Both the position numbers and the translations under genes were made by a program. Positions 40,554-60,340 of a stretch of DNA of 64,000 bases are shown one piece after another. The stretch spans positions 842-64,841 of the forward strand of contig CAZBBB010000007.1 in assembly GCA_964490005.1 (NCBI GenBank), read 5' to 3'. Every line of letters starts with the position of its first letter. The first letter of the stretch is position 1. Origin of the DNA: an uncultured Phycisphaerales bacterium. Lineage in GTDB: Bacteria > Planctomycetota > B15-G4. Below the pieces are notes generated by a model, which saw only the letters and a program-made list of their open reading frames with translations, was not told the DNA's origin and ran no database searches.

Positions 40554-40560
40554 GCGGCAC

Positions 40561-43825: not shown

Positions 43826-44781
43826 ACCCGATGATCTCGGTCATCGTCTGCACCTACAACCGCGAGGCGCTGCTCGCGCGTTGCCTGGACAGCCTGGCCG
43901 AGCAGACGCTGGACCGCGCGCTCTACGAGGTGGTCGTCGTCGAGAACAACTGCACCGACGGGACGCGGGCGCTGCTCGAGCGCCGCGCCGCTGCACAGGC
44001 CAACCTGCAGTGGACCTCCGAGACGAACCAGGGGCTGTCCTGGTCGCGCAACCGCGGGGCCACGGTGGCGCGCGGCGCCTGGCTGGCCTACATCGACGAC
44101 GACGCGCTGGCGCCGCCCGAGTACCTGCGCGGCATCCACGACGTGATCCGCGAGCACGCGCCGGACATGATCGGCGGCCCGATCCTGCCCTACTACCTCG
44201 ACAGGAAGCCGAGCTGGTTCCTCGACGAGTACGAGATCCGCAAGTACCAGGACGCGTCGGGCTTCTCGCGGACCTGCGGCGTCAAGGGCAGCAACTACGT
44301 CCTGCGCAAGGACCTGCTCGCGAAGCTGGGCGACTTCGACGTCGAGCTCGGCATGAAGGGCACGACCTCGGCCTACGGCGAGGACCGCGCGCTGCTCGTG
44401 AAGTACCGCGCGACGACGCCCAAGGCCGAGCAGCGCGTCTACTACGCGGCGCACTGTCCGATCCTGCACCTCGTGCCGCGCCACAAGATGCGGCTGGGCT
44501 ACATCATGCGCCGCCAGTACGAGGGCGGCCGCATCAGCATCTCGCTCAAGGGCAAGGTGCGCAGCGGCCGCGAGGGTCTGCGCATGCTCGCCCGCCTGCC
44601 CCTCGAGTACCTCTACGACGTGCGCAAGATCGACCGCGGTCGTCCCGAGCGGAGCTACTTCGCGGTCGAGTTCCTGCGTCGCTCGGCGCTCTACGCCGGC
44701 AAGCTGGTCGAGTGCGTCCGCATGACGGCGGGCTTCGCGCTGCGGCGGCTGTCCGGTCGCGCGCCGCGGCGGCGGGACTGA
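43822..44781 (+). CDS. family 2 glycosyltransferase
   Basis: ISVIVCTYNRE, NNCTDGT and YIDDDA motifs. GTG 43822 overlaps the upstream stop; ATG 43831 is an alternative start. Confidence 0.9.
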   Translation: MNPMISVIVCTYNREALLARCLDSLAEQTLDRALYEVVVVENNCTDGTRALLERRAAAQANLQWTSETNQGLSWSRNRGATVARGAWLAYIDDDALAPPEYLRGIHDVIREHAPDMIGGPILPYYLDRKPSWFLDEYEIRKYQDASGFSRTCGVKGSNYVLRKDLLAKLGDFDVELGMKGTTSAYGEDRALLVKYRATTPKAEQRVYYAAHCPILHLVPRHKMRLGYIMRRQYEGGRISISLKGKVRSGREGLRMLARLPLEYLYDVRKIDRGRPERSYFAVEFLRRSALYAGKLVECVRMTAGFALRRLSGRAPRRRD

Positions 44782-44794
44782 GCGCGACGGCGCC

Positions 44795-46042
44795 TCAGTG
44801 CGCCGCGGCGGCGCCCCGGCCCTCGTCGCGCGGGGCGCCCGCGGCCGACGGCTGGCCGGGCTCGTCGTCCGGCGCGGCTTGCGCCGACCACGCGCTCTCG
44901 ACGACCAGATCGCCCCACTTGTTCGGCGGGAGGCGGCCGGTGCCGAGGCAGTCGGAGTCGCTCACGGCCAGGCTGCACAGGTTGACGAGCTTGTCGGCCA
45001 GCTGGCGATCGGCGAAGCAGCTCACGACGAGGTCGTAGGTGCCCGGCAGCAGCGGCAGGCGCGGCACCGTGCAGACCCAGCGGCCGCGCCGCCCGGCCCG
45101 CGCGAGCGGCGTGCGCGCGATCTCGCTGCCCAGTCCGAACAGGCGGCTGCCCTTGCTGCCCTCGACGATCACCGTGAGCGTGACCTCGCCCGGCGGTTCG
45201 GGCAGCGCGCTCTCGTAGTCGAAGACGAGGCGCGCCGGCGCGCCCGCCGGCACCGCGGGCACCGGCGTGCCGGCGCCGTCCTGCAGCTCGAAGCGGACGA
45301 TCCGCAGCGCGCCGCTGCCCTTGCGGCCTTCGCTGCGGCGCAGCACGGCGCCGCCGCCGGGGCCCAGCATGAGTTCGCGGTAGGCCTTGATCACCGCGTT
45401 GGGTGCGTCGTCCAGGCGGAGCTCGCCGCCTTCGAGCAGGATCGCGCGCGAGCACAGCGACTGCACCGCGCCCAGGCTGTGGCTCACGAACAGGACCGTG
45501 CGCCCCTCGCCCGACGTGAGGTCGCCCATCTTCTGCAGGCAGCGCTCGCGGAAGGCGATGTCGCCGACGGCGAGCACCTCGTCCACGAGCAGGATCGCCG
45601 TGTCGAGGTGCGCCGCGACCGCGAAGGCCAGGCGCGCCTTCATCCCCGACGAGTACTTGCGCACGGGCGTGTCGATGAAGGCGCCGACGCCCGAGAACTC
45701 GACGATCGCATCGAGCCGCGCGCGGATGTCCTGCGGGCTCATGCCCAGGATCGTGCCGTTGAGCGCGATGTTCTCGCGCCCCGAGAGGCTCTCGTGCATG
45801 CCGGTGCCGGTCTCGAGCAGCGTGCCCACGCGACCGCGCACGCGGGCGCGGCCTTCCGTGGGCGAGGTGATGCGCGCGAGGATCTTCAGCAGCGTGCTCT
45901 CGCCCGCCCCGTTGCGGCCGATGATGCCGAGCACCTCGCCGGGCGCGACTTGCAGGTCGACGTGCCGCAGCGCCCAGAACTCCCGGCCCTTGAGGTCGTA
46001 GCGCTTGCCGAGGCCGGCGATCTCGAGGGCGGGCAGGCTCAC
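44795..46042 (-). CDS. Wzt/TagH-type polysaccharide ABC-exporter ATPase with a C-terminal Wzt_C-like extension; Walker A lysine replaced by Glu
   Basis: Walker A GRNGAGEST (Glu codon at 45899-45901), signature YSSGMKARL, Walker B LLVDEVLAVGD and H-loop VSHS. A beta-rich tail of about 170 aa follows the NBD. The GTG overlaps the permease stop (GTGA). Confidence 0.9.
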   Translation of the reverse strand: MSLPALEIAGLGKRYDLKGREFWALRHVDLQVAPGEVLGIIGRNGAGESTLLKILARITSPTEGRARVRGRVGTLLETGTGMHESLSGRENIALNGTILGMSPQDIRARLDAIVEFSGVGAFIDTPVRKYSSGMKARLAFAVAAHLDTAILLVDEVLAVGDIAFRERCLQKMGDLTSGEGRTVLFVSHSLGAVQSLCSRAILLEGGELRLDDAPNAVIKAYRELMLGPGGGAVLRRSEGRKGSGALRIVRFELQDGAGTPVPAVPAGAPARLVFDYESALPEPPGEVTLTVIVEGSKGSRLFGLGSEIARTPLARAGRRGRWVCTVPRLPLLPGTYDLVVSCFADRQLADKLVNLCSLAVSDSDCLGTGRLPPNKWGDLVVESAWSAQAAPDDEPGQPSAAGAPRDEGRGAAAAH

Positions 46043-46923
46043 AGCGTGTCGACCAGTCGGCTCTCGACGCGACTGAAGGCGCGCAGGCCGAGCCACAGCA
46101 GGAGCGCGATCGCCGCCGCCGACCAGGCCAGCGCGCCGGCGGGCGGCGGCGTGTCGCCCATGAGGGCCCAGCGGAAGCCCTGCAGCAGGCCCGCGAGCGG
46201 ATTGGCGTAGTAGACGGCCTGCCAGCGCTCGGGGATGAGCGAGGCGGGATAGGTGACGGGCGAGGCGTAGAGCAGCGCGCGCAGCGCGACGGGCAGCGCG
46301 ATCTGGACGTCGCGCCGTTCGACCGAGAGCGCGGCGAGCAGCAGGCCCGCGCCGAGCGCGAGCAGCACGACCGCGAGCAGCAGCGGGAGGGCGGCGAGCG
46401 CGCCCCAGCCGGGGGCGATCCCGTAAGCGGCCATCAGGAGCAGGCAGATGCCGAGCACCGCGAGCAGGTCGAAGCTGCCGGTGCTCACGCTCGTGAGCGG
46501 CGCGATCAGGCGCGGGTAGTAGACCTTCGAGAAGGTGCCGACGTGCGCGGCGAGCGAGCCGGCCGTCTGGCGCACTGCCCCGCTGAAGAACAGGTAGATC
46601 CCCACGCCCGAGAAGATGAACAGCGGGATCGGGATGCGGTCGGCGCGCACGCCGAGCAGCACGCCGAAGACCAGCCAGTACACCGCGGCCAGCAGCAGCG
46701 GCTGCAGCAGCACCCACCAGAAGCCGAAGAAGGTGGAGCGGTAGCGCGCACGCAGCTCGCGCAGCACGAAGTGCTTCAGCAGGTGCCGGTAGGCCCACGC
46801 CTGCGGCAACCCGTAGCCGCGCCCGACCGAGTCGGGGCCGATCTCGACGCACGCGTCGGGGCCTGCGTCCGCCGGGTCGCCGACCGGGGGCGCATTCGGG
46901 AGCGTCAGGTCGGACATGGACAT
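46039..46923 (-). CDS. ABC-2-type polysaccharide exporter permease (Wzm/KpsM-like)
   Basis: 294 aa from ATG 46923, with GAGG 5 nt upstream. Six hydrophobic segments and an N-terminal YRHLLKHFVLRELRARYRSTFFGFWW motif typical of ABC-2 permeases. Confidence 0.9.
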   Translation of the reverse strand: MSMSDLTLPNAPPVGDPADAGPDACVEIGPDSVGRGYGLPQAWAYRHLLKHFVLRELRARYRSTFFGFWWVLLQPLLLAAVYWLVFGVLLGVRADRIPIPLFIFSGVGIYLFFSGAVRQTAGSLAAHVGTFSKVYYPRLIAPLTSVSTGSFDLLAVLGICLLLMAAYGIAPGWGALAALPLLLAVVLLALGAGLLLAALSVERRDVQIALPVALRALLYASPVTYPASLIPERWQAVYYANPLAGLLQGFRWALMGDTPPPAGALAWSAAAIALLLWLGLRAFSRVESRLVDTL

Positions 46924-46945: not shown

Positions 46946-48052
46946 TCACGGCGCGCCCGGGACCGGGGAGTCCGCAGGGTATGCGGCGGCGCGGCCCTCG
47001 ACAATGCCGAGGAAGGCGGCGGCCGCGTCCGCCCAGCGGAAGCGCGCGGCGCGCCGTCGCCCGCGCTCGGCGAGTTCGCGCCGCGCCTCGGGATCGCCCA
47101 GCAGCTCCGCCAGCGCGCGCGCGAGCGCCGCGTCGTCGCCCGTCTCGAAGAAGCGCGCGGCGTCGGCGCAGACCTCGGGCAGCGCGCCGGCCCGCGCCGC
47201 CAGGACCGGCACGCCGACCGCCAGGGCCTCGAGCGCCGGAAGGCCGAAGCCCTCGTGCCGCGACGGATGCACGAGGAGGTCGGCGGCGGCGTACAGGCGC
47301 GCGAGGCGGGCGTCGTCGACGCGACCGGTCCACTCGATGTCGGCGCCGGAGGCCGCACGCGCCCGCGCCGGGGAAGCGCCGACGATCGTCAGCCGCCGCC
47401 CGGCGCGCGCGGCCGGCGGCAGGCGCGCCCAGGCGCGCAGCAGGGTCGGCGCGTCCTTGCGCGGCGAGCCCGCGCCCACGCACAGCACGCGGCGCGGGCC
47501 CTCGGCAGGGGGCGGCGCGGGCCCGAGGAACAACTCCGGCACGCCGTGGGGCACGACGTGCAGGCGCGCGGCCGGCGCGACGCCGCAGCGCAGCAGCTCG
47601 TCGCGCGAGAAGGCGCTGACCGTGACCACGGCCTGCACGCGGCGGCCCAGCCGCGGCTGCAGCCAGCGGTAGGCGCGCGCGAAGGCCCACGGGAACCAGC
47701 GCGGTTCGACGAACACCGCGGCGTCGTGGATCGTCAGGATCTGCCGCGGCACGTCGAGCGGCCCCGTGTTCGCGGGGCACCACAGCAGCTCGCCGTCCCA
47801 GCGCCGCAGCCAGTGCGCCAGGCGCAGCTGCTCCCAGGCGTGGCCGCCCAGCGGGGCGCGGTCGACGAGCAGCTCGACGCCGGGCGGCGCGCCCGCCCGC
47901 GCCGCCGCCTCGGCCCGCGCCGGGACGACGACGCCCAGCGCCCAACCCTCCGGCCGCGCGCGCGCGAGCGCCGTGAGCAGTTCGCGCGCGGCGCGCTGCA
48001 CGCCGCCCGCGGGCTGGCCGAAGAAGCGCCCGTTGACGAGCAGGCGTCGCAT
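46946..48052 (-). CDS. family 4 (GT-B) glycosyltransferase
   Basis: 368 aa. PSRHEGFGLPALEALAVGVPVLA (EX7E region). The ATG overlaps the upstream stop (ATGA at 48055-48052 region). Confidence 0.9.
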   Translation of the reverse strand: MRRLLVNGRFFGQPAGGVQRAARELLTALARARPEGWALGVVVPARAEAAARAGAPPGVELLVDRAPLGGHAWEQLRLAHWLRRWDGELLWCPANTGPLDVPRQILTIHDAAVFVEPRWFPWAFARAYRWLQPRLGRRVQAVVTVSAFSRDELLRCGVAPAARLHVVPHGVPELFLGPAPPPAEGPRRVLCVGAGSPRKDAPTLLRAWARLPPAARAGRRLTIVGASPARARAASGADIEWTGRVDDARLARLYAAADLLVHPSRHEGFGLPALEALAVGVPVLAARAGALPEVCADAARFFETGDDAALARALAELLGDPEARRELAERGRRRAARFRWADAAAAFLGIVEGRAAAYPADSPVPGAP

Positions 48053-49755
48053 CAGCGCGCGACGGGCGCGTCGGCTGCGGAGTGGATGAAGGCGCGCCGT
48101 TCGAGGATGCCGCGGCAGATCGTGTCGAGCCCCGGGTCGGCGCCCGGCCGCAGCGCGTCGAGCGAGCGCGCCGCGACGCGGTACAGCGGGCGTCCCGCCG
48201 CGGGCCGCACCGAGCGCACGGGGATCATGCGGCGGTCGAAGAAGTGCCAGGCGTAGCGGCGCGCGCGCGCGACGGCGTCCGCGCCCAGGCGCCGCCCGAA
48301 GGGCAGCCGTTCCAGCAGCGCGAAGTACGCGTCGGCGTCGCTCGCGTCGTGCGTCAGGCCCTTGCCGCGCACCCAGGCCTCGCCCGCGACGATGACCGGG
48401 ATCCCCATGCTGGCGAGTTCGACGCCGGCCTTGGTGCCGTAGATCAGCGCCGCGTCGCAGCAGCGCAGGATGCCGTAGGTGCTCAGCGGATCGTCGGGGC
48501 CGACGACCCGCACGTTCGCCGGCAGGCGCTCGAAGGCGCGCGCCAGCTCGGCCTCGACCGGTTGCCGCGAGACGATGCGCGCGCGCGTCTCGGCGGGGTG
48601 CACGCGGACGACGAGCTGCAGCGCCGGGTGGCGCTCGAACCAGGCGATCGTGCGCATGAGCCAGTCGAGCATGTCGGGGAAGGCGCGCGCGGGGTAGTGC
48701 AGCTGCGCGTCCCAGACGACGTTCGTGAGCAACCCGATCCAGGGACGCGCGGGGTCGAGGCCCAGGCGCCGGGCGATCTCCGCCGGCCGCTCCTCGGTGG
48801 CGTCGTGGAAGCGGATCCAGTCCTCGCTGCCGCGCCGGCGGCTGGCCAGGTAGGCGTCGAGCGCGGCCTCCTCGCGCGGCTCGAGCGCGCGATCCTCCCA
48901 GGCGGAGGTCGGCTCGCGCATGAGCTCGTGGTGGTAGGTCTCGCCGTGGCTGAACAGGAAGCGGCCGCGCCGCACGGCGGGGTTCCAGTTGACGACGCGC
49001 ACGCCCTGCTCGCGCGCCGCGTCGCCGATGAGCCCCTGCGGCACGTACAGCCCGTGATGGAAGACGGCGACCTCGGGCCGGCGCGCGTCGAGCAGACGCC
49101 GCGCCGCGTGCATCGCGAGCAGCGCGGCCTCGACGTAGGCGCGCAGCACGCTCTCGCCGCGGGGCTCGTCGTCGAGCGTGCCGCGCGCGAAGAAGCGCAG
49201 CGCCCCGGCGAGCGCGTGCTCGCCGACGGCGACGCCGCCGTCGCGCAGCGTGGCGATGCGCTCGCGGGCCAGCGTGCGGGCGCGCAGCCGCGCGTCGGCG
49301 CGCGCCTCGGGCGCGAGCAGTTCCGAGTAGCGGTGCACGTGCAGCCCGAGCGGCGCGAAGACGGCCTCGCCCGGCGCCGCGCAGGAGCCGCACAGATGCG
49401 CGCTCACGCGGCCGTCGCCGAGCGCCGCGGGCTGTTCGTGCCAGGCGAAGGTGGCTTCCATGCAGGCCGGCAGGGCCTCGTCGCACAGCAGCAGCTCGAC
49501 CTCCGCCCCGCGCAGGGTGAGTGCCACGGCCAGCAGGCTCTCGAGCGTGGTGCCCGGCCGGAAGCCGCCGACGCTCGTGGCGACGAGCACCCGCGGGCCG
49601 CCGCGCGCCGCGGCCCGCGCGCGCTCCCAGGCCTGCCGCTCGGCGCCCAGGAGCGAGGCCCAGTCGGCGTAGGCGGCCGGCCGCGCGTAGAAGCGCCGCA
49701 GCCAGCGGCGCACCCGCGGCGATCCGTCGTGCAGCCGGCGCAGGGCGTCGATCAT
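48052..49755 (-). CDS. capsule-polysaccharide-biosynthesis (KpsC/KpsS-like) protein, paralogue B
   Basis: 567 aa. Roughly half of the positions are identical by eye to 37124-38773 over the full length. Same 4-Cys motif (LLCDEALPAC...LCGSC). The ATG overlaps the transketolase stop. Confidence 0.7.
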   Translation of the reverse strand: MIDALRRLHDGSPRVRRWLRRFYARPAAYADWASLLGAERQAWERARAAARGGPRVLVATSVGGFRPGTTLESLLAVALTLRGAEVELLLCDEALPACMEATFAWHEQPAALGDGRVSAHLCGSCAAPGEAVFAPLGLHVHRYSELLAPEARADARLRARTLARERIATLRDGGVAVGEHALAGALRFFARGTLDDEPRGESVLRAYVEAALLAMHAARRLLDARRPEVAVFHHGLYVPQGLIGDAAREQGVRVVNWNPAVRRGRFLFSHGETYHHELMREPTSAWEDRALEPREEAALDAYLASRRRGSEDWIRFHDATEERPAEIARRLGLDPARPWIGLLTNVVWDAQLHYPARAFPDMLDWLMRTIAWFERHPALQLVVRVHPAETRARIVSRQPVEAELARAFERLPANVRVVGPDDPLSTYGILRCCDAALIYGTKAGVELASMGIPVIVAGEAWVRGKGLTHDASDADAYFALLERLPFGRRLGADAVARARRYAWHFFDRRMIPVRSVRPAAGRPLYRVAARSLDALRPGADPGLDTICRGILERRAFIHSAADAPVAR

Positions 49756-51647
49756 CGGCCGGCGGCGAGCGCCTCGCGCAGGCGCGCGTCGAGCGACGCG
49801 GCGTCGAGGCGGTGCGCCGCGAGCACCTCGTCGTTCTGCCCGCCCGCCGGCAGGCCCTCGACGCCGAAGCTGAAGGCGCGCACGCGCGCGGCGAGCGGCG
49901 CGCGGGCCAGTTCGGCCAACAGCCGCTCGCCCTGGCCGCCGGCGAGGTAGTGGTCGTCGAGCGTGAAGATCGCCGGCTGCCCCGCGACGACGTCGGCGAG
50001 CCAGTCGAGGTCGAAGACGTTGAGCCAGGGCAGGTTGACGAGCTTCAGCCGGACCCCGTGCTCGCGCCGCAGCGTCTCGATCGCGTCGAAGGCCTGGCTG
50101 AGCATCACCGGCCCGTAGGCGAACAGCACGCCGTCGCTGCCCTCGGTGAGGGCCCAGCCGCGGCCGCGGCGCAGTTCGGTGCGCTCGGGCGTGGCGAAGG
50201 GCACGATCCAGGGGATCGAGCACAGCCGCAGGTAGCCCGGGCCGGCGTGGCGTTCGAGCAGGTAGGCGGCGCACAGCTCGACCTCGCGTTCGGTCGCCGG
50301 AGCGAGCAGTTCCATGCCGGGCATCGCGCCCAGCGCCGAGATGTCGCGCACCGCCTGGTGCGAGTGCCCCGGCGTGCCCGGCAGCAGTCCCGCGAGCGTG
50401 GCGACGTGCACGACGTGGCTGCCCTCGGTCGCGTTCGTGTAGATCTGCTCGTTGGGGCGCGCCGAGAGGAAGCACGCGAAGGAGTGCACGACCGGCAGCA
50501 GGCCCTTCAGGGCCAGCCCGCCCGCCTGGCTGACCATGTCCTGCTCGGCGATGCCGCACTCGATGAAGCGCTCGGGGAAGCGCTCGGCGAACGGCCCGAG
50601 GCCGCAGTCCTTGACGAGGTCGGCGTCGAGCGCGACGAGGCGCGGCTCGCGCTCGGCGTGCGCCACGAGCGTACGCGACCAGGCCTCCACCAGTCGCTGG
50701 CGGGGCGCCGGCGAGTGGCTCACGGCGTGCGCCTGCGTCTCGGTGCGCAGCGGCGCCGCGTCCAGTCTCGCGAGGCGGCTCTCGACGTCGGCGCGCAGCT
50801 CGGCCAGCGCGCGCTCGTAGCTGTCGTCGTCGGGCGCGCCGCTGTGGAAGGCGTAGAAGCGCCCCTCGGCTTCGAAGCGCTCCATGAACGAGACGCCGCG
50901 TCCCTTGATCGTGTCGGCGAGGATCACGCGCGGGCGGGGCGCGCCCGCGCCGAAGGACCTCCACGCGCGGGCGAGCGCGTCCACGTCGTGGCCGTCGCAG
51001 CGCGCCACCTGCCAGCCGCAGGAGGAGAAGCGGGCCGGCAGGTCGCCGAGATCGCAGACGCGCGCGACCCAGGTGTCGGACTGGATCGCGTTGCGGTCCA
51101 CGATCACGGTGAGTTCCGACAGGCCGCGGTTGGCGGCGCCGACGAGCGACTCCCAGATCTGGCCCTCCTGCAGCTCGCCGTCGCCGGTCAGGACCACGAT
51201 GCGGCCGCGCGGCCCGAGCCGCCGCCGGGCCTCGGCCATGCCCTTGGCCTTCGAGATCCCCATGCCCAGCGAGCCGGTGTTCGCCTCCATGAAGGGGATG
51301 CGCACCTCGGGGTGCCCCGGCAGGCCGTCGCGGCGGCGCAGGCGCCGCAGCAGCGCCGGGTCGAGGCGCCCGAGGCCCGCGAGCGCCGCGTAGAAGGCCG
51401 GCGCGTCGTGCCCCTTCGACGAGAACACGATGTCCTGCGGCAGGCGCAGCTCCTCGAGCATCAGCCACGAGACGATGTCGAGGCAGCTGAAGGAGGTGCC
51501 GAGGTGGCCCGAGCCGGCGTGCTTCACCATCGTGAGCACCTGCAGGCGGCACATCGAGGCGAACAGCGCGGTGCGCTCGTGTCCGGCGCCTTCGAGGGCC
51601 AGCACGCGCTCGAACTCGTCCGGCGGGATCCAGTGCAGTTCAACCAC
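49752..51647 (-). CDS. transketolase-family thiamine-diphosphate enzyme (N- and C-terminal halves fused)
   Basis: 631 aa. GSGHLG, the TPP-binding GDGELQEG...NAIQSD, and a pyrimidine-binding half (FIECGIAEQDMV). GTG start; 8-nt overlap with the upstream gene. Confidence 0.9.
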   Translation of the reverse strand: MVELHWIPPDEFERVLALEGAGHERTALFASMCRLQVLTMVKHAGSGHLGTSFSCLDIVSWLMLEELRLPQDIVFSSKGHDAPAFYAALAGLGRLDPALLRRLRRRDGLPGHPEVRIPFMEANTGSLGMGISKAKGMAEARRRLGPRGRIVVLTGDGELQEGQIWESLVGAANRGLSELTVIVDRNAIQSDTWVARVCDLGDLPARFSSCGWQVARCDGHDVDALARAWRSFGAGAPRPRVILADTIKGRGVSFMERFEAEGRFYAFHSGAPDDDSYERALAELRADVESRLARLDAAPLRTETQAHAVSHSPAPRQRLVEAWSRTLVAHAEREPRLVALDADLVKDCGLGPFAERFPERFIECGIAEQDMVSQAGGLALKGLLPVVHSFACFLSARPNEQIYTNATEGSHVVHVATLAGLLPGTPGHSHQAVRDISALGAMPGMELLAPATEREVELCAAYLLERHAGPGYLRLCSIPWIVPFATPERTELRRGRGWALTEGSDGVLFAYGPVMLSQAFDAIETLRREHGVRLKLVNLPWLNVFDLDWLADVVAGQPAIFTLDDHYLAGGQGERLLAELARAPLAARVRAFSFGVEGLPAGGQNDEVLAAHRLDAASLDARLREALAAGR

Positions 51648-52407
51648 CGTCGTGCTCCCGTCGAGTGCCGGCCGCGACGGCAGCCACCTCCGGCAGCCGT
51701 GCCTCGCCGGTGCGCGCGAGGTGCTCGGCCACGATCCAGTCGAGCGGGTCGTTGATGTCGAAGCCCTCGTGGCCGCGCGTGAGGAAGGGCACGATCTCGG
51801 TGCCCGCGATCGTGCGCGTGGCGCGCACGACCGCGACCCGGGCGATCTCGAGGCTGGCGTTCTGCACGAGCACGGGCGGCAGGGCCTGATAGGGCGTGCT
51901 GTGCCAGGGCGGGTCGACGGGGCCGCCTTCGAGCAGCGGGCGCAGCCGCTCGCCGTCCCGCACCCACATCTTGCCGGGATGCTGGCGGCAGGGTTCGACG
52001 GCGCGGAGCGAGTGCGCTTCGGGCTGCGCCTCGAAGGTCGCCGCGGCGCGCCGGATCGTCTCGGCCGTGCGGAAGGGGCTCGTCGGACGCAGCAAGGCGA
52101 AGGCCTCGGGGCGCCGCCCGGACTGCGCCAGCGCGTCGAGCGCGTGCAGCACCCAGTCGATGTCGGGCGAAGTCGGGCCGGCCAGCTCGGCGGGCCGCAG
52201 GAAGGGCGTCTCGGCGCCGTACGCGCGCGCGATCGCGGCGATGCGCGCGTCGTCCGTCGACACGATCAGGGCGTCGAACAGCCCGCTGTCGCGCGCCGCA
52301 CAGATGGTGTAGGCGATCATCGGGTGCCCGGCGAGCGTCCGGATGTTCTTGCCGGGGACGCGCGCCGAGCCGCCGCGCGCCGGGATGAGGGCGATGCAGG
52401 CGCGCAC
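51640..52407 (-). CDS. acylneuraminate/ulosonate cytidylyltransferase (CMP-sugar synthetase family)
   Basis: N-terminal LIPARGGSARVPGKN motif and the family pattern ...STDD...; 255 aa; GTG start. Confidence 0.88.
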   Translation of the reverse strand: MRACIALIPARGGSARVPGKNIRTLAGHPMIAYTICAARDSGLFDALIVSTDDARIAAIARAYGAETPFLRPAELAGPTSPDIDWVLHALDALAQSGRRPEAFALLRPTSPFRTAETIRRAAATFEAQPEAHSLRAVEPCRQHPGKMWVRDGERLRPLLEGGPVDPPWHSTPYQALPPVLVQNASLEIARVAVVRATRTIAGTEIVPFLTRGHEGFDINDPLDWIVAEHLARTGEARLPEVAAVAAGTRREHDGG

Positions 52408-52411
52408 GGGC

Positions 52412-53875
52412 TCAGGTCTCGCCGGGCGCCGAGTGCAGGTAGACCGTCTTCCACTCCGAGTAGACGTCGAGCGCCTCGGTGCCGGCCTCGCGCGTGCCGT
52501 TGCCCGACAGGCCGAGGCCGCCGAAGGGCAGGTGCGGCTCGCTGCCGTAGGTCGCGCCGTTCACCGAGACGACGCCGGTGCGGACGCGATTCATGAACAC
52601 GAGCGCGCGGTTCACGTCGCGCGTGTGGATGGCGGCCGTGAGGCCGAAGGGCGAATCGTTGGCCAGCGCGAGCGCGGCCTCGAAGTCGGGCACGCGGTGC
52701 AGCACGGTGATCGGGCCGAACAGCTCGCAGGCGGAGAGCGGGTCGCCCGGCGGCAGCTCCTCGAGCACGGTGGGCGCCATGTAGCAGCCGGCGGCGCGGC
52801 CCGCATCCGTCAGGCGCGTGCCGCCGATCGCGACGCGCGCTCCGCGGCCCGTCGCGGCCTGCACGGACTGCAGCATCGCGCGCAGTTGCGTCTCGTTGAT
52901 CACCGGCCCGAGGTCGTCCTCGTCGAAGGGGCCCACGCGCAGCGCGCGCGTGCGCTCGAGCAGCGCCCGGCGGAAGGGTTCGTACACGGACTCGAACACG
53001 ATCAGCCGGCTGGCCGCGGCGCAGCGCTGGCCGGCGTTGCTGAAGGCCGAGAGCACGGCGACGTCGGCGGCGCGCTCGAGTTCGGCGTCGTCGCAGACCA
53101 CGAGCGCGTTCTTGCCGCCGAGTTCGAGGCAGGTGCGCGCCAGGCGCCGGCCGGCGGCGACCGCGATGCCGCGCCCGACCTCGGCCGAACCGGTGAAGCT
53201 GACGAGGTCGACGCCGGCGTGCTCGACGAGCGGCGCGCCGGCCTCCGGGCCGAGCCCGTGCAGCGTGTTGAGCACGCCGGCCGGCAGGCCGGCCTCGTGG
53301 AGCAGCCGGCCGAACAGCGCCGCCGTGGCGGGGGCGTCCTCGCTCGACTTGAGCACGGCGGCGTTGCCGCAGAGCAGCGCCGGAAAGGCCTTCCAGGCGA
53401 CGTTCGCGATCGGCGTGTTCGCGGGCACGATCAGCCCCGCGACGCCGACCGGCTGACGCAGCGTGAGCGCCTGGCGGTGGGGCACGGCGCTCGTCGTCGT
53501 GCGGCCGTAGAGCCGGCGACCCTCGCCCGCCACGAACAGGCCCATCTCGATCGCGGCCGAGGTCTCGCCGCGCGCGTCCTTCAGGGACTTGCCGGTCTCG
53601 AGGTGCACGACGCGCGCGACGTCCTCGAGGCGCTCGCGCAGGGCCAGCGCGCCCGCCCGCAGCAGATCGCCGCGCTCGACCGCCGTGCGGGCCGCCCAGG
53701 CCGGCTGCGCCGCGCGGGCGGAGGCCACCGCCGCCGCCACGTCGGCCGCGCGCGAGCGCGCCGCCGTGCACAGTTCGCGTCCGTCGACCGGGGACTGCTT
53801 GGGAAAGCGCTCGCCGTCGGCCGCCGGCCGCTCGCGGCCGGCGATGACGTTGTCGATCCGCGCCGGGATCACCAT
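52412..53875 (-). CDS. NAD(P)-dependent aldehyde dehydrogenase
   Basis: 487 aa. Catalytic Glu context LELGGKNA and Cys context NAGQRCAAAS. ATG at 53875 overlaps the SDR stop by 7 nt. Confidence 0.92.
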   Translation of the reverse strand: MVIPARIDNVIAGRERPAADGERFPKQSPVDGRELCTAARSRAADVAAAVASARAAQPAWAARTAVERGDLLRAGALALRERLEDVARVVHLETGKSLKDARGETSAAIEMGLFVAGEGRRLYGRTTTSAVPHRQALTLRQPVGVAGLIVPANTPIANVAWKAFPALLCGNAAVLKSSEDAPATAALFGRLLHEAGLPAGVLNTLHGLGPEAGAPLVEHAGVDLVSFTGSAEVGRGIAVAAGRRLARTCLELGGKNALVVCDDAELERAADVAVLSAFSNAGQRCAAASRLIVFESVYEPFRRALLERTRALRVGPFDEDDLGPVINETQLRAMLQSVQAATGRGARVAIGGTRLTDAGRAAGCYMAPTVLEELPPGDPLSACELFGPITVLHRVPDFEAALALANDSPFGLTAAIHTRDVNRALVFMNRVRTGVVSVNGATYGSEPHLPFGGLGLSGNGTREAGTEALDVYSEWKTVYLHSAPGET

Positions 53876-54678
53876 GCCGTGTACCCGCCGTCGACGCGCA
53901 GTTCGATGCCGGTGACGTAGCGCGCGGCGCGCGACGCGAGGAAGACCAGCGGGCCGCCGAGTTCGTCCTCCTGCGCGAGCCGTCCGAGCGGGACGTGCGC
54001 GCCGTAGCGGGCCTTGAAGCGCTCGTCCTGCCCGCCGAGCACGCCGCCCGGGGACAGCGCGTTGACGCGCACGCCGTGCGCGCCCCAGTGCGCCGCCAGA
54101 TAGCGCGTGAAGCCGAGGACGGCCGACTTCGAGGCGCCGTAGGCCAGCGGCTTGACGAAGGGCGGATCGCGGTCGAGATGCTCGTAGTAGCGCGGGTCGG
54201 GCGCGCGCGAGGCGTAGACCGAACCGATGTTCACGATCGAGCCGCGACCGGCGCGACACATCGGTCCGCCGAAGACCTGGCTGCACGTGACGGTGCCCAC
54301 CAGGTTGACGTCGAGGATCTGGCGCGTGAGTTCGGCGGGGAAGTCCTCGATGGCCCACGTGGGGGCGCCGGGTGCGGGCGGCTGGTCGATGCCGGCGTTG
54401 TTCACCAGGATCGAGGCCGGGCCCAGCTCGCGCGCCGCGAGGTCGCGCGCGGCGCGCAGCGCGTCGGCGTCGCGGACGTCGGCCTCGAGCCGGAGCAGCG
54501 CCTCGCCGTGCCGGTCGGCCAGCGCCTGGAAGCGCGCGTCGGGCGCGACGCCGGGCCGGTCGAGCGCGAGCACGCGCGCGCCGGCCGCGGTCAGCGCCTC
54601 GACCCAGACGGGCCCCAGACGCCCGAGCGCTCCGGTGACGACGGCCGACTCCCCGTCGAGCGAGAAGTCGGGCCTCAT
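53869..54678 (-). CDS. short-chain dehydrogenase/reductase (SDR)
   Basis: VVTGALGRLG cofactor motif, NNAG, and the catalytic S...YGASK. The ATG overlaps the NeuB-like stop (ATGA). Confidence 0.92.
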   Translation of the reverse strand: MRPDFSLDGESAVVTGALGRLGPVWVEALTAAGARVLALDRPGVAPDARFQALADRHGEALLRLEADVRDADALRAARDLAARELGPASILVNNAGIDQPPAPGAPTWAIEDFPAELTRQILDVNLVGTVTCSQVFGGPMCRAGRGSIVNIGSVYASRAPDPRYYEHLDRDPPFVKPLAYGASKSAVLGFTRYLAAHWGAHGVRVNALSPGGVLGGQDERFKARYGAHVPLGRLAQEDELGGPLVFLASRAARYVTGIELRVDGGYTAW

Positions 54679-55775
54679 GGGGCCGGATCGGCGGCCCGTG
54701 CGCGCGGCGTCTCCGCCGCGGCGAGCGGCTCGAGGTGCCCGAGCGCGAGCGGCACCTCGACGTCGAGCGCGACGCGCAGCGCGCGTCCGAGCACCGCGCC
54801 GAGTTCGGCGGGCGGCACGCCGCCCCCGGGCGACTTGATGCGCAGGTCGCCCTCGGCGAGCACGTGGCCGACCGGCAGCGCACGCGCGGTGTACAGGCTC
54901 TTGCCCATCTTGCGTCGGGCCTCGGCCTCGATCGGCAGCACGCGCTTGACGCCGTCGCCGAGCGCGACGCGCGCGCGCTCGAGGTCCCGCACCATCTTGC
55001 GCAGACCGGCGGGCTCGAGCGAGAAGGCGTGGTCGGTGCCCTTCATGGCGCGATTGAGCGTGAAGTGCTTCTCGATCACGCGCGCGCCCAGGACGTAGGC
55101 CGCGACGGCCATGGCGATGCCGCTGTCGTGCATCGAGGCGCCGATGACGGCGCCCGGCAGTTCGCGGCGGTAGCTGTCGATGACGTTCAGGTTGAGGTCG
55201 GAGAACTCGTTCGGGTAGCTGGCCGTGCACTGCAGCAGCGCCAGCTGCGGGTTGATCGGCATGATCGTGTCGTGCGCGCGCCGCACGTCGAGCATCGCGG
55301 CCGCGCCCGTGCTCACGATCATCGGCTTGCCGATGCGCGCCACGTGCCGCAGGAGCGGCAGGTTCGTCAGGTCGCCCGAGGCGATCTTGACGGCCGGAAC
55401 GTCGAGTTCGGCCAGGAAGTCGGCGCTCTCGAAGTCGAAGGCCGTCGCGAAGAAGGCCAGGCCGAGTTCGTCGCAGCGGCGTCGCAGCACGAGGTACTCG
55501 TCGCGGCCGAACTCCAGGAACTCGCGATGCTGACCGTAGGTGCGGCCGAAGGAGTTCTCGCTCTCGTAGGGCCGATCGTACATCTCCCGCGTGTAGAGCG
55601 AGCGGTTGTCCCGCTTCTGCAGCTTGACCGCGTGCGCCCCGGCCTCGTGCGCCGCCTCGACCAGCTTGAGCGCCGTCTCGAGACTGCCCTGGTGATTGTG
55701 GCCGACCTCGGCGATGACGTAGCAGGGTGCGTCGTCACGCACGGTGACGCCGCCGATCACGATCTCTCGGTTCAA
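54675..55775 (-). CDS. NeuB-family ulosonic (sialic-acid-type) acid synthase with a C-terminal SAF domain
   Basis: YVIAEVGHNHQG, AVKLQKR, KIASGD, IVSTG and EKHFT motifs plus a SAF-like tail. TTG at 55775 (GGAG 9 nt upstream) leaves 18 aa before IAEVG. The track start at 55871 adds Arg-rich junk. Confidence 0.9.
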   Translation of the reverse strand: MNREIVIGGVTVRDDAPCYVIAEVGHNHQGSLETALKLVEAAHEAGAHAVKLQKRDNRSLYTREMYDRPYESENSFGRTYGQHREFLEFGRDEYLVLRRRCDELGLAFFATAFDFESADFLAELDVPAVKIASGDLTNLPLLRHVARIGKPMIVSTGAAAMLDVRRAHDTIMPINPQLALLQCTASYPNEFSDLNLNVIDSYRRELPGAVIGASMHDSGIAMAVAAYVLGARVIEKHFTLNRAMKGTDHAFSLEPAGLRKMVRDLERARVALGDGVKRVLPIEAEARRKMGKSLYTARALPVGHVLAEGDLRIKSPGGGVPPAELGAVLGRALRVALDVEVPLALGHLEPLAAAETPRARAADPAP

Positions 55776-55917: not shown

Positions 55918-56667
55918 TCAGTGCGCCGCGCGGCGATGGATCAGGTTGAGGATGCGCGTGCCCTTGACCAGGCGCGGCGCGTTGCCCGGCACGCCGTCGT
56001 CGCGCTGCAGGCCGGCCGCGCTCAGCACGCGTCCGATCTCCGCGACCTCGTCCGCGTCGTCGAGGTCGACCTCGACGAGCACCGAGCGCAGCTCCGGCGC
56101 CGCGAAGGTGCGGGCGCCGCCGCGCACGACGGCCGTCTCGAGGCCGTCGACGTCGATCTTGACGTGCTGCGGCGCGGGCAGCCCGTACTGCTCGCGCAAC
56201 GCGTCGATGCTCAGCGCGAGCGCCCCCTGCTGCCAGGCCGGCACGAAGGTCTCGCGCTTGAAGTCGACGGCGCTCCCGAACACGTGCAGCGAGCCGCCGA
56301 CGCGGTTGTCGCGCATGCGCAGCGTGTCGATGCGGCAGCGCTCGTCGAGCGCGAGGGGCAGGGCCCGCACCCGGGCGTCGAGGCCGTTGCGGAGGATGTT
56401 GCAGTTGAGGCCGTGGAAGTTGGCCGCTCCGGGCTCGAAGGCCCAGACGGTGCAGTCGCGCGCCACGGCGGCGTAGAGCGCGTAGGTGCCGACGTTGGCG
56501 CCGATGTCCCACAGCACCTCGCCCGGCCGGAAGCCGTCGATCCAGGCGATCGTGCCCGGCTCCTTGTCGAAGAGCGTCTCGGCGCGCCGGCGCGCGAGTT
56601 CGGTGGGGCACTCGAAGGCCAGCGTCCGGCCGGCGATGCGGTGCGTCACGATGGGGGGCTCGTCCAC
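55918..56667 (-). CDS. FkbM-family methyltransferase
   Basis: VLWDIGANVGTYALYAA...VWAFEP pattern typical of FkbM-type SAM methyltransferases. GTG start. Confidence 0.85.
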   Translation of the reverse strand: MDEPPIVTHRIAGRTLAFECPTELARRRAETLFDKEPGTIAWIDGFRPGEVLWDIGANVGTYALYAAVARDCTVWAFEPGAANFHGLNCNILRNGLDARVRALPLALDERCRIDTLRMRDNRVGGSLHVFGSAVDFKRETFVPAWQQGALALSIDALREQYGLPAPQHVKIDVDGLETAVVRGGARTFAAPELRSVLVEVDLDDADEVAEIGRVLSAAGLQRDDGVPGNAPRLVKGTRILNLIHRRAAH

Positions 56668-56840: not shown

Positions 56841-57974
56841 GTGAGCACGCAGAACGACGCCCGCTTCCTGTTCCTCGCCGGCGGGCCGCGAACCGGGACG
56901 AGCATGCTCGTCCGGCACTTCGACGCGCACCCCGACCTGCTCGTGTTCCCGATCGAGGTCTCGCTCCTCCGCGACGTGGCGCGCACCGGCGACTGCGCCG
57001 AGGCCGCGCGCGAGTACCGCGCGCCCGCCGGCAGCGCCCGCAAGGAGCTGTTCTTCATCGAGCGCGCCCGGCTCGAGGCCTATGTCGGTCGACTGCAGGC
57101 CGAGGGGCTCGACCGCGCCGACCTGTACCGTCAGGTCGACGGCGCGCGCTTCGCGGAGGCGCTCGCGGCGGCCCTGCGCGCGCCGGGCCCGGAGGGCCCC
57201 GGCAAGCTGCTGCTCGCGCTGGGCGCGGCGCTCTCGGCCGGACATCCCGCCGCCGGGCCGCCGCCCTCGGCCGGGCGCGCGCTGGCGCTCAAGCTGCCGT
57301 TCTACGCGGAGATGGCGGCGCCCGCGCTGGCCGCGGCGCTCCCCGGCGCCCGCTTCGTGCACCTGCTGCGCGAGCCGCTGCCGCGCTACGTCTCGAGCAA
57401 GGCGCGCCGCCTGCGCACGCGCGGCGGGCGCGTCGGGGCGGTCGGGACCGTCGACTACACGACCTTCCAGATCGAGCTCGGGATCGCCTCGCGCGTGCTC
57501 GCCGAGGACAACGCGCGGCGCCTCGGGTCGCGCTACGTGCACGTGCGCTTCGAGGACCTCGTCGCCGACTCCGAACGCGCGCTGCGCGGCTTGTGCGCCG
57601 CGCTCGGCCTCCGCTACGATCCCGTGCTGCTCGCGCAGACGGCCTTCGGGCAGGAGCAGCGCGTCCCCTCCTCCCACGGGTTCATCGACCATGAGCCTGA
57701 GCGCGATGCGGCACGCCGACAGGCCGCGACGTTGCGGATCACGAACGCCGACGAGCGCGAATACGTCTCGGCGCGCTGCGAGGCGGCCTTCGGCGCGCCC
57801 GACCCCGAGCGCCTGGCCGCGCTCATGCGCCGGCGCATGGCGCACGAGGACGACGAGGCCGCCGAACTGCGCCGCGCCGCGGCCGGGCGCCTGCAGGTCG
57901 AGGCGCTGTCGGCGCGCGCGACCTGCGAGCGCGTGCTCGCCGCGCTGCGCGACAAGCCGCTGCCGCTGATCTGA
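56841..57974 (+). CDS. sulfotransferase-family protein
   Basis: GTG 56841. 5'-PSB-like FLFLAGGPRTGTSML and 3'-PB-like RFVHLLREPLPRYVS. The track start (56685) adds Arg-rich sequence. Confidence 0.75.
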   Translation: MSTQNDARFLFLAGGPRTGTSMLVRHFDAHPDLLVFPIEVSLLRDVARTGDCAEAAREYRAPAGSARKELFFIERARLEAYVGRLQAEGLDRADLYRQVDGARFAEALAAALRAPGPEGPGKLLLALGAALSAGHPAAGPPPSAGRALALKLPFYAEMAAPALAAALPGARFVHLLREPLPRYVSSKARRLRTRGGRVGAVGTVDYTTFQIELGIASRVLAEDNARRLGSRYVHVRFEDLVADSERALRGLCAALGLRYDPVLLAQTAFGQEQRVPSSHGFIDHEPERDAARRQAATLRITNADEREYVSARCEAAFGAPDPERLAALMRRRMAHEDDEAAELRRAAAGRLQVEALSARATCERVLAALRDKPLPLI

Positions 57975-59149: not shown

Positions 59150-60340
59150 TCAGCCGGCGCGCTCGACGAGCGCGACGGCCCGCACCTCGATCGCCGCCCC
59201 CTCGCCGACGGGGCCGAGCCGCTCGAAGGTCTTGCCCTTCACGGCGACCTGGCCCGGCTCGAGCCCGAGCGCGTCCGCGATCGAGGCCCCCAGACGCGCG
59301 CGCAGCGGCGCGATCTTCGGCGCCTCCGCCAGCACGATCGCGTCGACGTTGAGCACGCGCACGCCGGCCGCGGCGAGGCGGCCGGCCACGTCGCGCGCCA
59401 TGGCGAGGCTCGACGCGCCCGCATGGCGCGGGTCGGAGTCGGGGTAGAGCGAACCGAGGTCGGGCAGCCCGGCCGCCGACAGCAGCGCGTCGAGGATCGC
59501 GTGCAGCAGCACGTCGCCGTCCGAGTGCGCCACCAAGCCGCGCTCGTCCGGCAGCGTGAGGCCGCCGAGCACGAGCGGTCGCTGCGCGCCCGTGCGGTGC
59601 ACGTCGAATCCCAGACCGACGGCCAGTCGTCCCATGGGGCGGTCTCCCGTGCCGGAACCGGCCTGCAGCGTCGCCTGCGCGAGCGCCAGGTCCGCCGGCG
59701 TCGTGATCTTGAAGTTGCGGGCCGAGCCGGGCACGCAGGCGATCGGCGCCCCGTCGGCCTCGTACAGCGCCGCCTCGTCGGTGACGGTGCGGCCTTCGGC
59801 CTGAGCGCGCTGCAGGCGCTCGAGCAGTTCGCGCCGACGGAAGGCCTGCGGCGTCTGCGCCGCGTGCAGCGCCTCGCGCGGGAGCGTGGTCTCGACGCGC
59901 GCGCCGCGCACCTGCTTGATCGTGTCGGCGAGCGGTTGCGTGAGCAGCGCGGCGCCGTGCGCGGCCGCCGCGTCCGCCAGCGCGGCCAGCGCGTCGACCG
60001 GCACGAAGGGCCGCGCCGCGTCGTGCACGAGCACGATCGGCGGAGCGTCGTCGCCGAGCGCGCGCAGGCCGGCCTGCACCGAGTCCTGCCGGCGCGCGCC
60101 GCCCGCGACGAGCGACACGGGCCGCGGCCAGTGCGCCGCGAGCGCCTCGACCTCGGCGCGGTCCTCGGCGTGGACCACGAGCACCACCGGGTCGAGCCAC
60201 GGCAGCTTCAGCAGCCGCAGCAGCGCGTGCTCGAGCAGCGGCCGCCCGCCGAGCCGCACGAGCGCCTTGTGCCGCGCGGCGCCCAGCCGCGACCCGGTGC
60301 CGGCCGCGACGATCACCAGGCCCGCGCGTTCAGTCGGCAT
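59150..60340 (-). CDS. ispDF: bifunctional 2-C-methyl-D-erythritol 4-phosphate cytidylyltransferase / MEcPP synthase
   Basis: IspD part (VIVAAGTGSRLG...VLVHDAARPF...TPQAF) fused to an IspF part (GLGFDVHR...AHSDGDVLLHA...). 396 aa. Confidence 0.95.
   Translation of the reverse strand: MPTERAGLVIVAAGTGSRLGAARHKALVRLGGRPLLEHALLRLLKLPWLDPVVLVVHAEDRAEVEALAAHWPRPVSLVAGGARRQDSVQAGLRALGDDAPPIVLVHDAARPFVPVDALAALADAAAAHGAALLTQPLADTIKQVRGARVETTLPREALHAAQTPQAFRRRELLERLQRAQAEGRTVTDEAALYEADGAPIACVPGSARNFKITTPADLALAQATLQAGSGTGDRPMGRLAVGLGFDVHRTGAQRPLVLGGLTLPDERGLVAHSDGDVLLHAILDALLSAAGLPDLGSLYPDSDPRHAGASSLAMARDVAGRLAAAGVRVLNVDAIVLAEAPKIAPLRARLGASIADALGLEPGQVAVKGKTFERLGPVGEGAAIEVRAVALVERAG

Follow-up and report, generated by a model that had tools for sequence, protein, structure and literature searches.

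A recurrent gene cassette that pairs a NeuB-like synthase with a transketolase may make a CMP-activated, side-chain-truncated ulosonic acid

[quoted passage not shown] The closest described routes are those to 2-keto-3-deoxynononic acid (KDN) in Bacteroides thetaiotaomicron (synthase BT1714, phosphatase BT1713 and a cytidine monophosphate (CMP)-KDN synthetase) and to Kdo (KdsA, KdsC and KdsB). Both run from a phosphoenolpyruvate-dependent synthase with a sugar-phosphate substrate to a C0-type phosphatase of the haloacid dehalogenase (HAD) superfamily, of the YrbI kind, and on to a cytidylyltransferase, and both do without amino-sugar tailoring. Five genes on the minus strand of a 64,000-nucleotide stretch of DNA from an uncultured Phycisphaerales bacterium (the whole stretch is called the window here) lie at 49752-55775 and follow the same logic, but differ from the KDN and Kdo routes in three extra conserved enzymes: a short-chain dehydrogenase/reductase (SDR), an aldehyde dehydrogenase (ALDH) and a transketolase (TK). 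We propose, with a probability of roughly 0.45 and on the strength of sequence comparisons, that these five genes form the heart of a widespread cassette for a CMP-activated ulosonic acid with a truncated side chain. The scaffold of synthase, YrbI-type phosphatase and cytidylyltransferase is already known; the TK–SDR–ALDH trio within a NeuB cassette is new to the searchable literature, in which the matches were unrelated or dealt with plant rhamnogalacturonan II (RG-II).

In the scheme that we favour, the NeuB-like synthase would condense phosphoenolpyruvate (PEP) with a common hexose 6-phosphate to give a 3-deoxy-nonulosonate 9-phosphate, from which the YrbI-type phosphatase, or in other genomes a phosphatase of the HAD_2 family, would remove the phosphate. 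The SDR would use NAD to oxidise the penultimate carbon, C8, of a side chain resembling glycerol, creating a terminal ketol, HOCH2-C(=O)-CH(OH)-. The TK would take this ketol as its donor, so that C8 and C9 would leave as a glycolaldehyde unit bound to thiamine diphosphate (ThDP) and an aldehyde would remain at C7. The ALDH would convert the C7 aldehyde into a carboxylate, giving a 3-deoxy-hept-2-ulosaric acid, C7H10O8; the NeuA-like enzyme would make the CMP-sugar; and two KpsC-like transferases would attach the sugar to a glycan exported by a Wzm/Wzt transporter. TK, SDR and ALDH would then be tailoring enzymes of a dephosphorylated ulosonic acid, acting ahead of CMP activation. The scheme starts from nine carbons because this fits the NeuB family, whose enzymes turn a hexose into a nine-carbon acid, and because a pyranose ulosonate requires at least seven carbons, so that such a start is needed if the pyranose ring of the product is to be retained. 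We hold it to be somewhat better than an even bet that the pathway ends in a dicarboxylic ulosaric acid, in whichever order the steps run. That the cassette provides the first known biosynthesis of an ulosaric sugar (a dicarboxylic 3-deoxy-2-keto sugar), through C8 oxidation, two-carbon trimming by a dedicated TK, oxidation and CMP activation, is a more tentative claim, to which we would give a little less than even odds.

Genes were called from third-position GC bias (the G+C content of the window is about 74%), and their junctions were read directly off the sequence. The genes at the centre of the proposal are as follows.

54675-55775, minus strand: NeuB-family ulosonate synthase (PF03102, 256 bits; SAF domain, 25 bits)
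53869-54678, minus strand: SDR (adh_short_C2, 144 bits), sharing an ATGA overlap with the NeuB-like gene
52412-53875, minus strand: ALDH (Aldedh, PF00171, 476 bits), overlapping the SDR gene by 7 nucleotides (ATGGTGA)
51640-52407, minus strand: NeuA-like cytidylyltransferase (CTP_transf_3, PF02348, 74 bits), after a 4-nucleotide gap from the ALDH gene
49752-51647, minus strand: fused TK (Transketolase_N, Transket_pyr and Transketolase_C), overlapping the cytidylyltransferase gene by 8 nucleotides (GTGGTTGA)
34304-34816, plus strand: YrbI/KdsC-family phosphatase, about 15 kb from the five-gene unit

The NeuB-like gene opens with a TTG start at 55775, with a GGGAG motif resembling a Shine-Dalgarno sequence upstream of it. 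The open reading frames (ORFs), the junctions and the Pfam matches bear out the five translationally coupled genes that an earlier, sequence-only reading of the window had described. The unit is longer than that reading had it, however: coupling does not end at the TK but continues into genes for a KpsC-like glycosyltransferase, a GT4 glycosyltransferase, Wzm and Wzt, and so spans NeuB through Wzt. A scan of the operon for promoters and terminators gave nothing above expectation.

These genes recur together in many genomes. A pattern scan for relatives of the TK, with one genome taken per species, matched at least 578 species genomes in more than ten phyla, including Alpha-, Beta- and Gammaproteobacteria, Myxococcota, Cyanobacteria, Melainabacteria, Acidobacteriota, Gemmatimonadota, Chloroflexota, Actinomycetota, Planctomycetota, Verrucomicrobiota and the candidate phyla radiation (CPR). 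Homologues at 55-62% identity number in the thousands and carry generic labels ('transketolase' or 'hypothetical protein'). When the window proteins were compared by tblastn with 85 retrieved TK loci, a recurring gene order emerged: NeuB-(YrbI HAD)-SDR-ALDH-CMP-TK-(HAD_2)-(KpsC-like GT), CMP being the cytidylyltransferase and GT the glycosyltransferase. Partners were counted in the 58 loci whose TK is flanked by 6 kb or more of sequence upstream and 3 kb or more downstream. NeuB lies near the TK in 48 of these, the SDR in 49, the ALDH in 47 (placed between the SDR and the cytidylyltransferase) and the cytidylyltransferase in 48, and all four are present in 39. The cassette is kept, mostly in the same order, in Acidobacteriota, Gemmatimonadota, Chloroflexota, Proteobacteria, Cyanobacteria/Melainabacteria, Actinomycetota, Planctomycetota and CPR, and its cultured carriers include Kallotenue papyrolyticum JKG1, with a complete FkbM-NeuB-YrbI-SDR-ALDH-CMP-TK-GT series, and Ciceribacter sichuanensis S101. 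Because the same genes recur beside the TK, mostly in the same order, in most of the 58 loci and across many phyla, we conclude that their grouping is not due to chance. The sequence-only reading would have been undone by a TK, ALDH and SDR that act in an unrelated pathway; cross-phylum synteny places the trio in the same pathway as the synthase.

The same synteny bears on the idea that TK, SDR and ALDH make a separate substituent, of the glycolyl or glyceroyl type, for a KDN- or Kdo-like sugar, or serve an unrelated pathway that travels with the cassette. TK-derived glycolyl units do occur in natural products such as quinocarcin, and the locus in the window has many decorating enzymes, namely a carbamoyltransferase, a sulfotransferase and a number of methyltransferases. 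Yet the cassette has no acyltransferase, ligase or carrier protein as a conserved companion, the three genes are interleaved and translationally coupled with those of the synthase and the cytidylyltransferase across phyla, and in some genomes the tightest partner of the TK is the cytidylyltransferase itself. We regard this explanation as improbable.

Two phosphatase families accompany the cassette, the YrbI type in 16 and the HAD_2 type in 17 of the 58 loci, and they never co-occur. Such mutual exclusion looks like non-orthologous replacement, and the dephosphorylation step therefore belongs to the pathway. The HAD_2 type thus stands in for the YrbI type in half of the phosphatase-carrying loci, which is another difference from the KDN and Kdo routes. 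Clustering of the ORFs of 84 loci revealed no isomerase, kinase, epimerase or other widely shared gene beyond the phosphatases and the glycosyltransferase; since no other gene is universally linked, the substrate of the synthase should be a common metabolite.

The active site of the TK suggests where in the pathway it acts. The protein scores below all TK and 1-deoxy-D-xylulose-5-phosphate synthase (DXS) equivalog cut-offs, and its best match among solved structures is human TK (4kxu, 170 bits), for which a list of active-site residues is available (PMC8016368). The catalytic residues H48, H80, H112, D156, N186, K248, H268, E368 and H430 are kept, and in an alignment of 84 family members the equivalents of human His37, His77, His110, Lys244, His258 and Glu366 are invariant, as is the GDG...N motif for ThDP and metal; the position of human Gln428 is a histidine in the family, as in yeast (His481). 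The substrate end of the site is altered. At the phosphate site, human Arg318 is replaced by V320, Ser345 by D347, His416 by L418 and Arg474 by S477, and the stereo-determining Asp424 is replaced by P426. D347 and L418 are found in all 84 members, P426 and S477 in 83, and Val or Ile at position 320 in 82, while the family-specific His428, Arg434 and Arg474 are also invariant or nearly so. The four replaced phosphate-site positions match yeast Arg359, Ser386, His469 and Arg528, which bind the substrate phosphate, and human Asp424 matches yeast Asp477, on which selection for the configuration of the hydroxyl adjoining the reacting centre depends. We read the family TK, from these alignments, as a catalytically competent ketol-transfer enzyme whose predicted substrate is not phosphorylated. 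If the substrate is not a sugar phosphate, as the loss of the phosphate site suggests, the TK would act after the phosphatase.

What would prepare the TK donor is suggested by the SDR. This enzyme, a classical SDR, comes closest among curated families to mannonate oxidoreductase, gluconate 5-dehydrogenase and KduD, and among solved structures to galactitol dehydrogenase (2wdz), gluconate-5-dehydrogenase (1vl8), L-xylulose reductase and the dehydrogenases of sorbitol/mannitol, all of which interconvert -CH(OH)-CH2OH and -C(=O)-CH2OH termini of polyols or sugar acids. TK donors require an HOCH2-C(=O)-CHOH motif, and the terminal ketol formed by the relatives of the SDR is exactly this motif. The enzyme has the TGxxxGxG motif as TGALGRLG and the YxxxK motif as YGASK, and Asp40, at the end of β-strand 2, is acidic (Asp or Glu) in 59 of 59 homologues, the usual mark of an NAD-dependent SDR that is biased towards oxidation. 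The ALDH, whose translation shows ELGGKN and GQRC, has its best curated matches, all below cut-off, in 2,5-dioxovalerate and α-ketoglutarate-semialdehyde dehydrogenases; their substrate 2,5-dioxovalerate is a 2-keto-3-deoxy ω-aldehyde.

These features do not favour the sequence-only reading in one respect, its view that TK, ALDH and SDR build or remodel an aldose-phosphate precursor: the TK has lost its phosphate residues while keeping the catalytic ones, and the SDR and ALDH have relatives that work on sugar acids and on 2-keto-3-deoxy acids. In an upstream arrangement, the three enzymes would make an unusual aldose phosphate, for example a tetrose phosphate or another sugar phosphate that the TK splits off from a ketose phosphate, which NeuB would join to PEP, and the SDR and ALDH might afterwards oxidise the terminal CH2OH to a carboxylate, so that this route would likewise end in an ulosaric acid. 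There is a precedent in the 3-amino-5-hydroxybenzoic acid (AHBA) pathway of rifamycin, where a TK supplies imino-erythrose 4-phosphate to aminoDAHP synthase; the genes are co-conserved, as this arrangement would have it, and the HAD_2 protein of the cassette has a weak match (24 bits) to the AHBA-associated phosphatase. However, replacement of all four phosphate-binding residues throughout the TK family speaks against sugar-phosphate substrates, the relatives of the SDR oxidise penultimate secondary rather than primary alcohols, and NeuB-family enzymes normally take hexoses and not tetroses. Central TK already provides erythrose 4-phosphate and ribose 5-phosphate, which would make a dedicated TK redundant, and an ALDH cannot sit upstream of an aldehyde-consuming synthase, because it would destroy the aldehyde. 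A position of TK, SDR and ALDH upstream of NeuB is therefore unlikely.

The fate of the C7 aldehyde allows a variant of our scheme in which the side chain is trimmed but no diacid is formed: the aldehyde would be reduced, aminated or kept, and the ALDH would detoxify glycolaldehyde set free by the TK or be limited to certain lineages. Several otherwise complete cassettes do not have the ALDH, and the TK has no obvious site for a phosphorylated aldose as acceptor, both of which fit this variant. In the 47 loci that do have it, on the other hand, the ALDH lies inside the cassette, its best matches are 2-keto-3-deoxy semialdehyde dehydrogenases and not glycolaldehyde or lactaldehyde dehydrogenases, and no reductase or aminotransferase is conserved with the cassette. 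We consider this variant, too, unlikely. The TK reaction is reversible, and the enzyme could in principle add a two-carbon ketol to a sugar-derived aldehyde, after which the SDR would reduce the ketone to give a higher-carbon ulosonic acid; the loci without ALDH are compatible with such a chain extension, which needs no ALDH. But no enzyme of the cassette would first make the required aldehyde, an NAD-type SDR suggests oxidation, and the ALDH, which most loci have, would be a competitor for that aldehyde; this leaves chain extension with very little credibility.

We next consider the scaffold enzymes of the favoured scheme. The synthase has the TIM-barrel domain (PF03102) and C-terminal SAF/antifreeze-like domain of the NeuB family, and alignment to Neisseria meningitidis NeuB shows conservation of the metal-binding His pair (HxxxxH(F)T), of the PEP-binding Lys/Ser residues and, by position, of K53/Q55 and K129/S132. 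SpsE, PseI and N. meningitidis NeuB all stand at much the same distance from it, and it falls below the cut-offs of both the N-acetylneuraminate (Neu5Ac) synthase equivalog (TIGR03569, 280.7 bits against 399.65) and the pseudaminic acid synthase equivalog (TIGR03586, 229.3 bits against 340.25). The position of N. meningitidis NeuB Arg314, a residue that contacts the N-acetyl group of the substrate, is a serine in the window enzyme ('IKSPGGG'). This replacement and the absence of linked amino-sugar genes count in favour of the scheme. As the sequence-only reading had stated, no UDP-GlcNAc 2-epimerase (NeuC), 4,6-dehydratase, DegT-family sugar aminotransferase or GNAT-type N-acetyltransferase is found among the called genes of the window by Pfam annotation. 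The only aminotransferases there are a class-V enzyme (21454-22719) and a class-I/II enzyme (29753-31006), both outside the locus; the class-V enzyme has a weak secondary match to DegT_DnrJ_EryC1 (23.0 bits, cut-off 19.8) as against 85.3 bits for class V. Among 80 related loci, neither NeuC nor a set of 4,6-dehydratase, DegT and N-acetyltransferase genes is conserved with the cassette, and DegT genes appear in only about 15 loci, as ordinary neighbours.

These observations also bear on whether the synthase is an ordinary enzyme for Neu5Ac, Leg, Pse or KDN, with its tailoring genes elsewhere and with TK, SDR and ALDH as passengers. Only the window is visible of this genome, and the enzyme does hit the profiles of NeuB (281 bits) and PseI (229 bits). 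Both scores nevertheless lie well under the equivalog cut-offs, Arg314 is replaced, and TK, SDR and ALDH recur with this NeuB clade in dozens of unrelated genomes, so that we judge an ordinary synthase highly improbable. The earlier suggestion of a new ulosonic acid fares well here: with the synthase outside the Neu5Ac and Pse equivalogs and the trio in the same pathway, the product is most likely a new derivative. The related loci also hold a second NeuB clade, which shares 38-41% identity with the window enzyme where the remaining NeuB proteins share 56-68%. Its cassettes are alike in other respects, belong mostly to Beta- and Gammaproteobacteria and usually include a YrbI-type phosphatase (loci L021, L023, L030, L035, L041, L045, L049, L056 and L084); this clade might use a different sugar phosphate.

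The phosphatase at 34304-34816 was previously assigned to the YrbI/KdsC type, and it scores 122 bits against KdsC (NF007019, cut-off 208), 103.2 bits against TIGR01670, just below the cut-off of 106.95, and 82 bits against the KDN-9-phosphate phosphatase equivalog (cut-off 180). The DxDG nucleophile motif is present as DFDGV, and among solved structures an uncharacterised HAD protein (3mmz, 129 bits) scores highest, ahead of Escherichia coli KdsC (101) and BT1713 (66). By sequence, the protein clearly belongs to the YrbI/KdsC fold family and is none of the named orthologues; in scoring below the KdsC and KDN-9-phosphate phosphatase equivalogs, it again departs from the known routes. At 53-61% identity to the cassette-embedded copies, it is the orthologue of the phosphatases that lie between NeuB and SDR elsewhere. 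The cytidylyltransferase scores 133 bits against PseF (cut-off 205.7), has NeuA/CMP-Neu5Ac synthetases (9ftb, 1eyr) as its nearest solved relatives, well ahead of KdsB, and shows the N-terminal IPARxxSxxxxxKN motif of CMP-ulosonate synthetases as LIPARGGSARVPGKN; its sequence points to a NeuA-like rather than a KdsB-like enzyme. With its NeuB-family synthase, YrbI-type phosphatase and CMP-transferase, the locus follows the logic of ulosonic-acid pathways with phosphorylated substrates, in line with the sequence-only reading.

The remaining steps, transfer and export, concern genes on either side of the five.

55918-56667, minus strand: FkbM-family methyltransferase (PF05050, TIGR01444), directly upstream of the NeuB-like gene
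48052-49755, minus strand: KpsC/KpsS-like glycosyltransferase of 567 amino acids, sharing an ATGA overlap with the TK gene; no Pfam match at the default threshold
46946-48052, minus strand: GT4 glycosyltransferase (Glycos_transf_1, Glyco_transf_4), sharing a TGATG overlap with the gene at 48052-49755
46039-46923, minus strand: Wzm-type ABC-2 permease (PF01061)
44795-46042, minus strand: Wzt-type ABC ATPase (ABC_tran, PF00005) with a C-terminal carbohydrate-binding domain (Wzt_C, PF14524)
37124-38773, plus strand: second KpsC-like glycosyltransferase (PF05159, 23.4 bits, cut-off 20), paralogue of the gene at 48052-49755

The 567-residue protein scores 16.7 bits against PF05159 (cut-off 20) and comes from a large family whose annotations say no more than hypothetical; 12 of 15 members have weak PF05159 matches. 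It is 53% identical to its paralogue, which lies in a converging plus-strand operon (34235-44781) together with the YrbI-type phosphatase, a carbamoyltransferase, methyltransferases and glycosyltransferases. In an AlphaFold (AF2) model of the 567-residue protein (pLDDT, a per-residue confidence score, 87.4; pTM, its global counterpart, 0.89), the best Foldseek matches in the Protein Data Bank (PDB) are the KpsC β-Kdo transferases 6mgb, 8fuw and 6mgc (E 1.7e-8; TM-score only 0.53, normalised to the smaller target), and generic GT-B enzymes and 2-epimerases rank next. When PDB sequences were searched with a profile of the family, nothing meaningful emerged, so that the link to KpsC comes from fold comparison alone. 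Because of this KpsC-like fold in the model, and because a gene of this family comes directly after the TK in 24 of the 58 loci, the protein is probably the transferase for the CMP-sugar. The Wzm and Wzt proteins, with PF01061, PF00005 and PF14524, are of the export type and coupled to the cassette (the GTG start of Wzt overlaps the stop codon of Wzm as GTGA). β-Kdo-capped O-antigens are exported by Wzm/Wzt transporters in Klebsiella O12 and Raoultella (WbbB). As in the capsule systems of KpsC/KpsS (GT107), two KpsC-like transferases lie beside a CMP-ulosonate pathway and an ABC transporter, here one with a Wzt carbohydrate-binding domain; unlike KpsC/KpsS, they are proteins of about 560 residues with a single catalytic domain, extra N-terminal elements and marginal PF05159 scores (16.7 and 23.4 bits).

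The FkbM methyltransferase is a possible O-methylase of the sugar. An FkbM gene also stands directly upstream of NeuB in K. papyrolyticum, and in locus L005 one lies about 3.3 kb upstream with three genes between. The polysaccharide locus as a whole (33110-59146) is unusually rich in decorating enzymes, with the FkbM protein and at least three other methyltransferases, the carbamoyltransferase (38763-40553), a sulfotransferase (56841-57974) and an NKWYS-family protein (33110-33970), which suggests a heavily modified glycan. It is adjoined by a fused IspD-IspF gene of the methylerythritol phosphate (MEP) pathway (59150-60340, minus strand).

Several points weigh against the favoured scheme. [quoted passage not shown] With mannose 6-phosphate, as in KDN synthesis, the product would be L-arabino and not D-lyxo, and the C7/C6 configuration of the 8-keto intermediate would then be that of the usual TK donor preference. 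The TK site was mapped by a single pairwise HMMER alignment to human TK, in which posterior probability is high at D347, L418 and P426 and moderate at V320 and S477, and the loss of the phosphate site would also deprive the TK of the usual acceptors for its two-carbon unit. For the SDR and ALDH, similarity extends over whole subfamilies and stays below every curated cut-off, so that it suggests a class of substrate only. The ALDH, moreover, is absent from loci L020, L028 and L046 (NeuB-SDR-CMP-TK), L059 and L086 (NeuB-SDR-TK), L068 and L084, L086 being a Streptomyces locus, and the carboxylate may not be universal. Finally, Moorena (L001/L006) groups only the cytidylyltransferase, the TK and HAD_2, and some TKs of the family stand alone among housekeeping genes (Methylococcales, Polyangiaceae).

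We found that the altered active-site signature is kept in all of the reduced or lone TK contexts (L014, L064, L073, L080 and the Moorena loci). That the lone TKs are ordinary metabolic enzymes was rejected on the same ground; their partners, and those of the Moorena TK, may be encoded at other places in the genome, or a second role may exist for the TK. The Streptomyces locus L086 was the one match in a search of a plasmid collection with the TK protein, and lies on the linear plasmid NZ_CP108509.1 of Streptomyces sp. NBC_01237, at about 815-827 kb. Its NeuB-SDR-TK core, without ALDH or cytidylyltransferase, is followed by genes for an RraA-like aldolase, an RmlD-like reductase, a HAD_2 phosphatase and an L-lysine 6-transaminase, then a LuxR regulator, and is preceded by hydroxymandelate-synthase-like, FMN-oxidase and aminotransferase genes of the hydroxyphenylglycine type; this three-enzyme core may feed a secondary metabolite. 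The class-III aminotransferase of this locus was considered as a branch point for the aldehyde and dropped, as it is the L-lysine 6-transaminase (NCBIfam, 569 bits, cut-off 521).

Late tailoring of an ulosonic acid has a parallel in the Kdo8N of Shewanella, where the alcohol dehydrogenase KdnB and the aminotransferase KdnA act on free Kdo before CMP activation. There, as in our scheme, a free ulosonic acid is modified at its far end by way of an aldehyde between the phosphatase and cytidylyltransferase steps. In Kdo8N, however, the terminal carbon is oxidised and aminated without loss of carbon, whereas the cassette is proposed to remove two carbons with ThDP and to form a carboxylate with the ALDH. 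Recruited TKs are likewise known: the sulfofructose transketolase SqwGH, the apulose-4-phosphate transketolase AptAB and Rif15 of AHBA synthesis are TK homologues that sit, like the present one, in dedicated operons and act on non-standard ketoses. They serve catabolism or the making of an antibiotic precursor, and none is known to be tied to a synthase of the NeuB type or to any CMP-sugar; the cassette TK also has a signature of its own relative to them, D347, L418, P426, H428, R434 and S477.

The predicted C7H10O8 product would be an isomer or relative of Dha. It shares with Dha its formula and groups (a seven-carbon 3-deoxy-2-keto acid with two carboxylates) and differs in the configuration predicted from common hexose phosphates, as described above. 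Reviews of 2012 and 2025 still list the biosynthesis and the activated form of Dha as unknown, and Dha is also found in the lipopolysaccharide of Acinetobacter haemolyticus (PMC3355719, PMC12168206, PMC4019464).

The remainder of the window holds housekeeping genes and FG-GAP and TPR proteins, and a few features there deserve mention. A 626-residue ORF at 11301-13181 (minus strand) joins an HD phosphohydrolase with HD_assoc (dGTPase-like) to a complete RNase III with a double-stranded RNA-binding domain, and is either an unusual natural fusion or a pair of neighbouring genes that read as one for want of a stop codon. Weak matches to the squalene-hopene cyclase C-terminal domain (prenyltransferase-like repeats) are seen in two proteins of about 510-540 residues encoded in tandem (3792-5312 and 5400-7010, both minus strand), and a 1549-residue DUF748 protein is encoded at 25078-29727 (plus strand). 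Three separate FG-GAP repeat proteins lie at 13544-14974, 31562-33088 and 62414-64000, all on the plus strand, and G+C falls to 0.68 at 14-16 kb, lower than in the rest of the window.

If the favoured scheme is true, TK would gain a new function in glycan biosynthesis, the trimming of the side chain of a free acidic sugar; to our knowledge, two-carbon trimming in glycan biosynthesis is not a known role of this enzyme class. The scheme would also predict a new CMP-sugar, and with it an unrecognised acidic sugar widespread among environmental bacteria. It would offer a template for how Dha is made and activated in bacteria, in green algae and in plant RG-II, a question that is decades old. Even if the order of the steps proves wrong, the NeuB–SDR–TK core and the TK signature D347/L418/P426/S477 would serve as markers for genome mining and for the annotation of this family.

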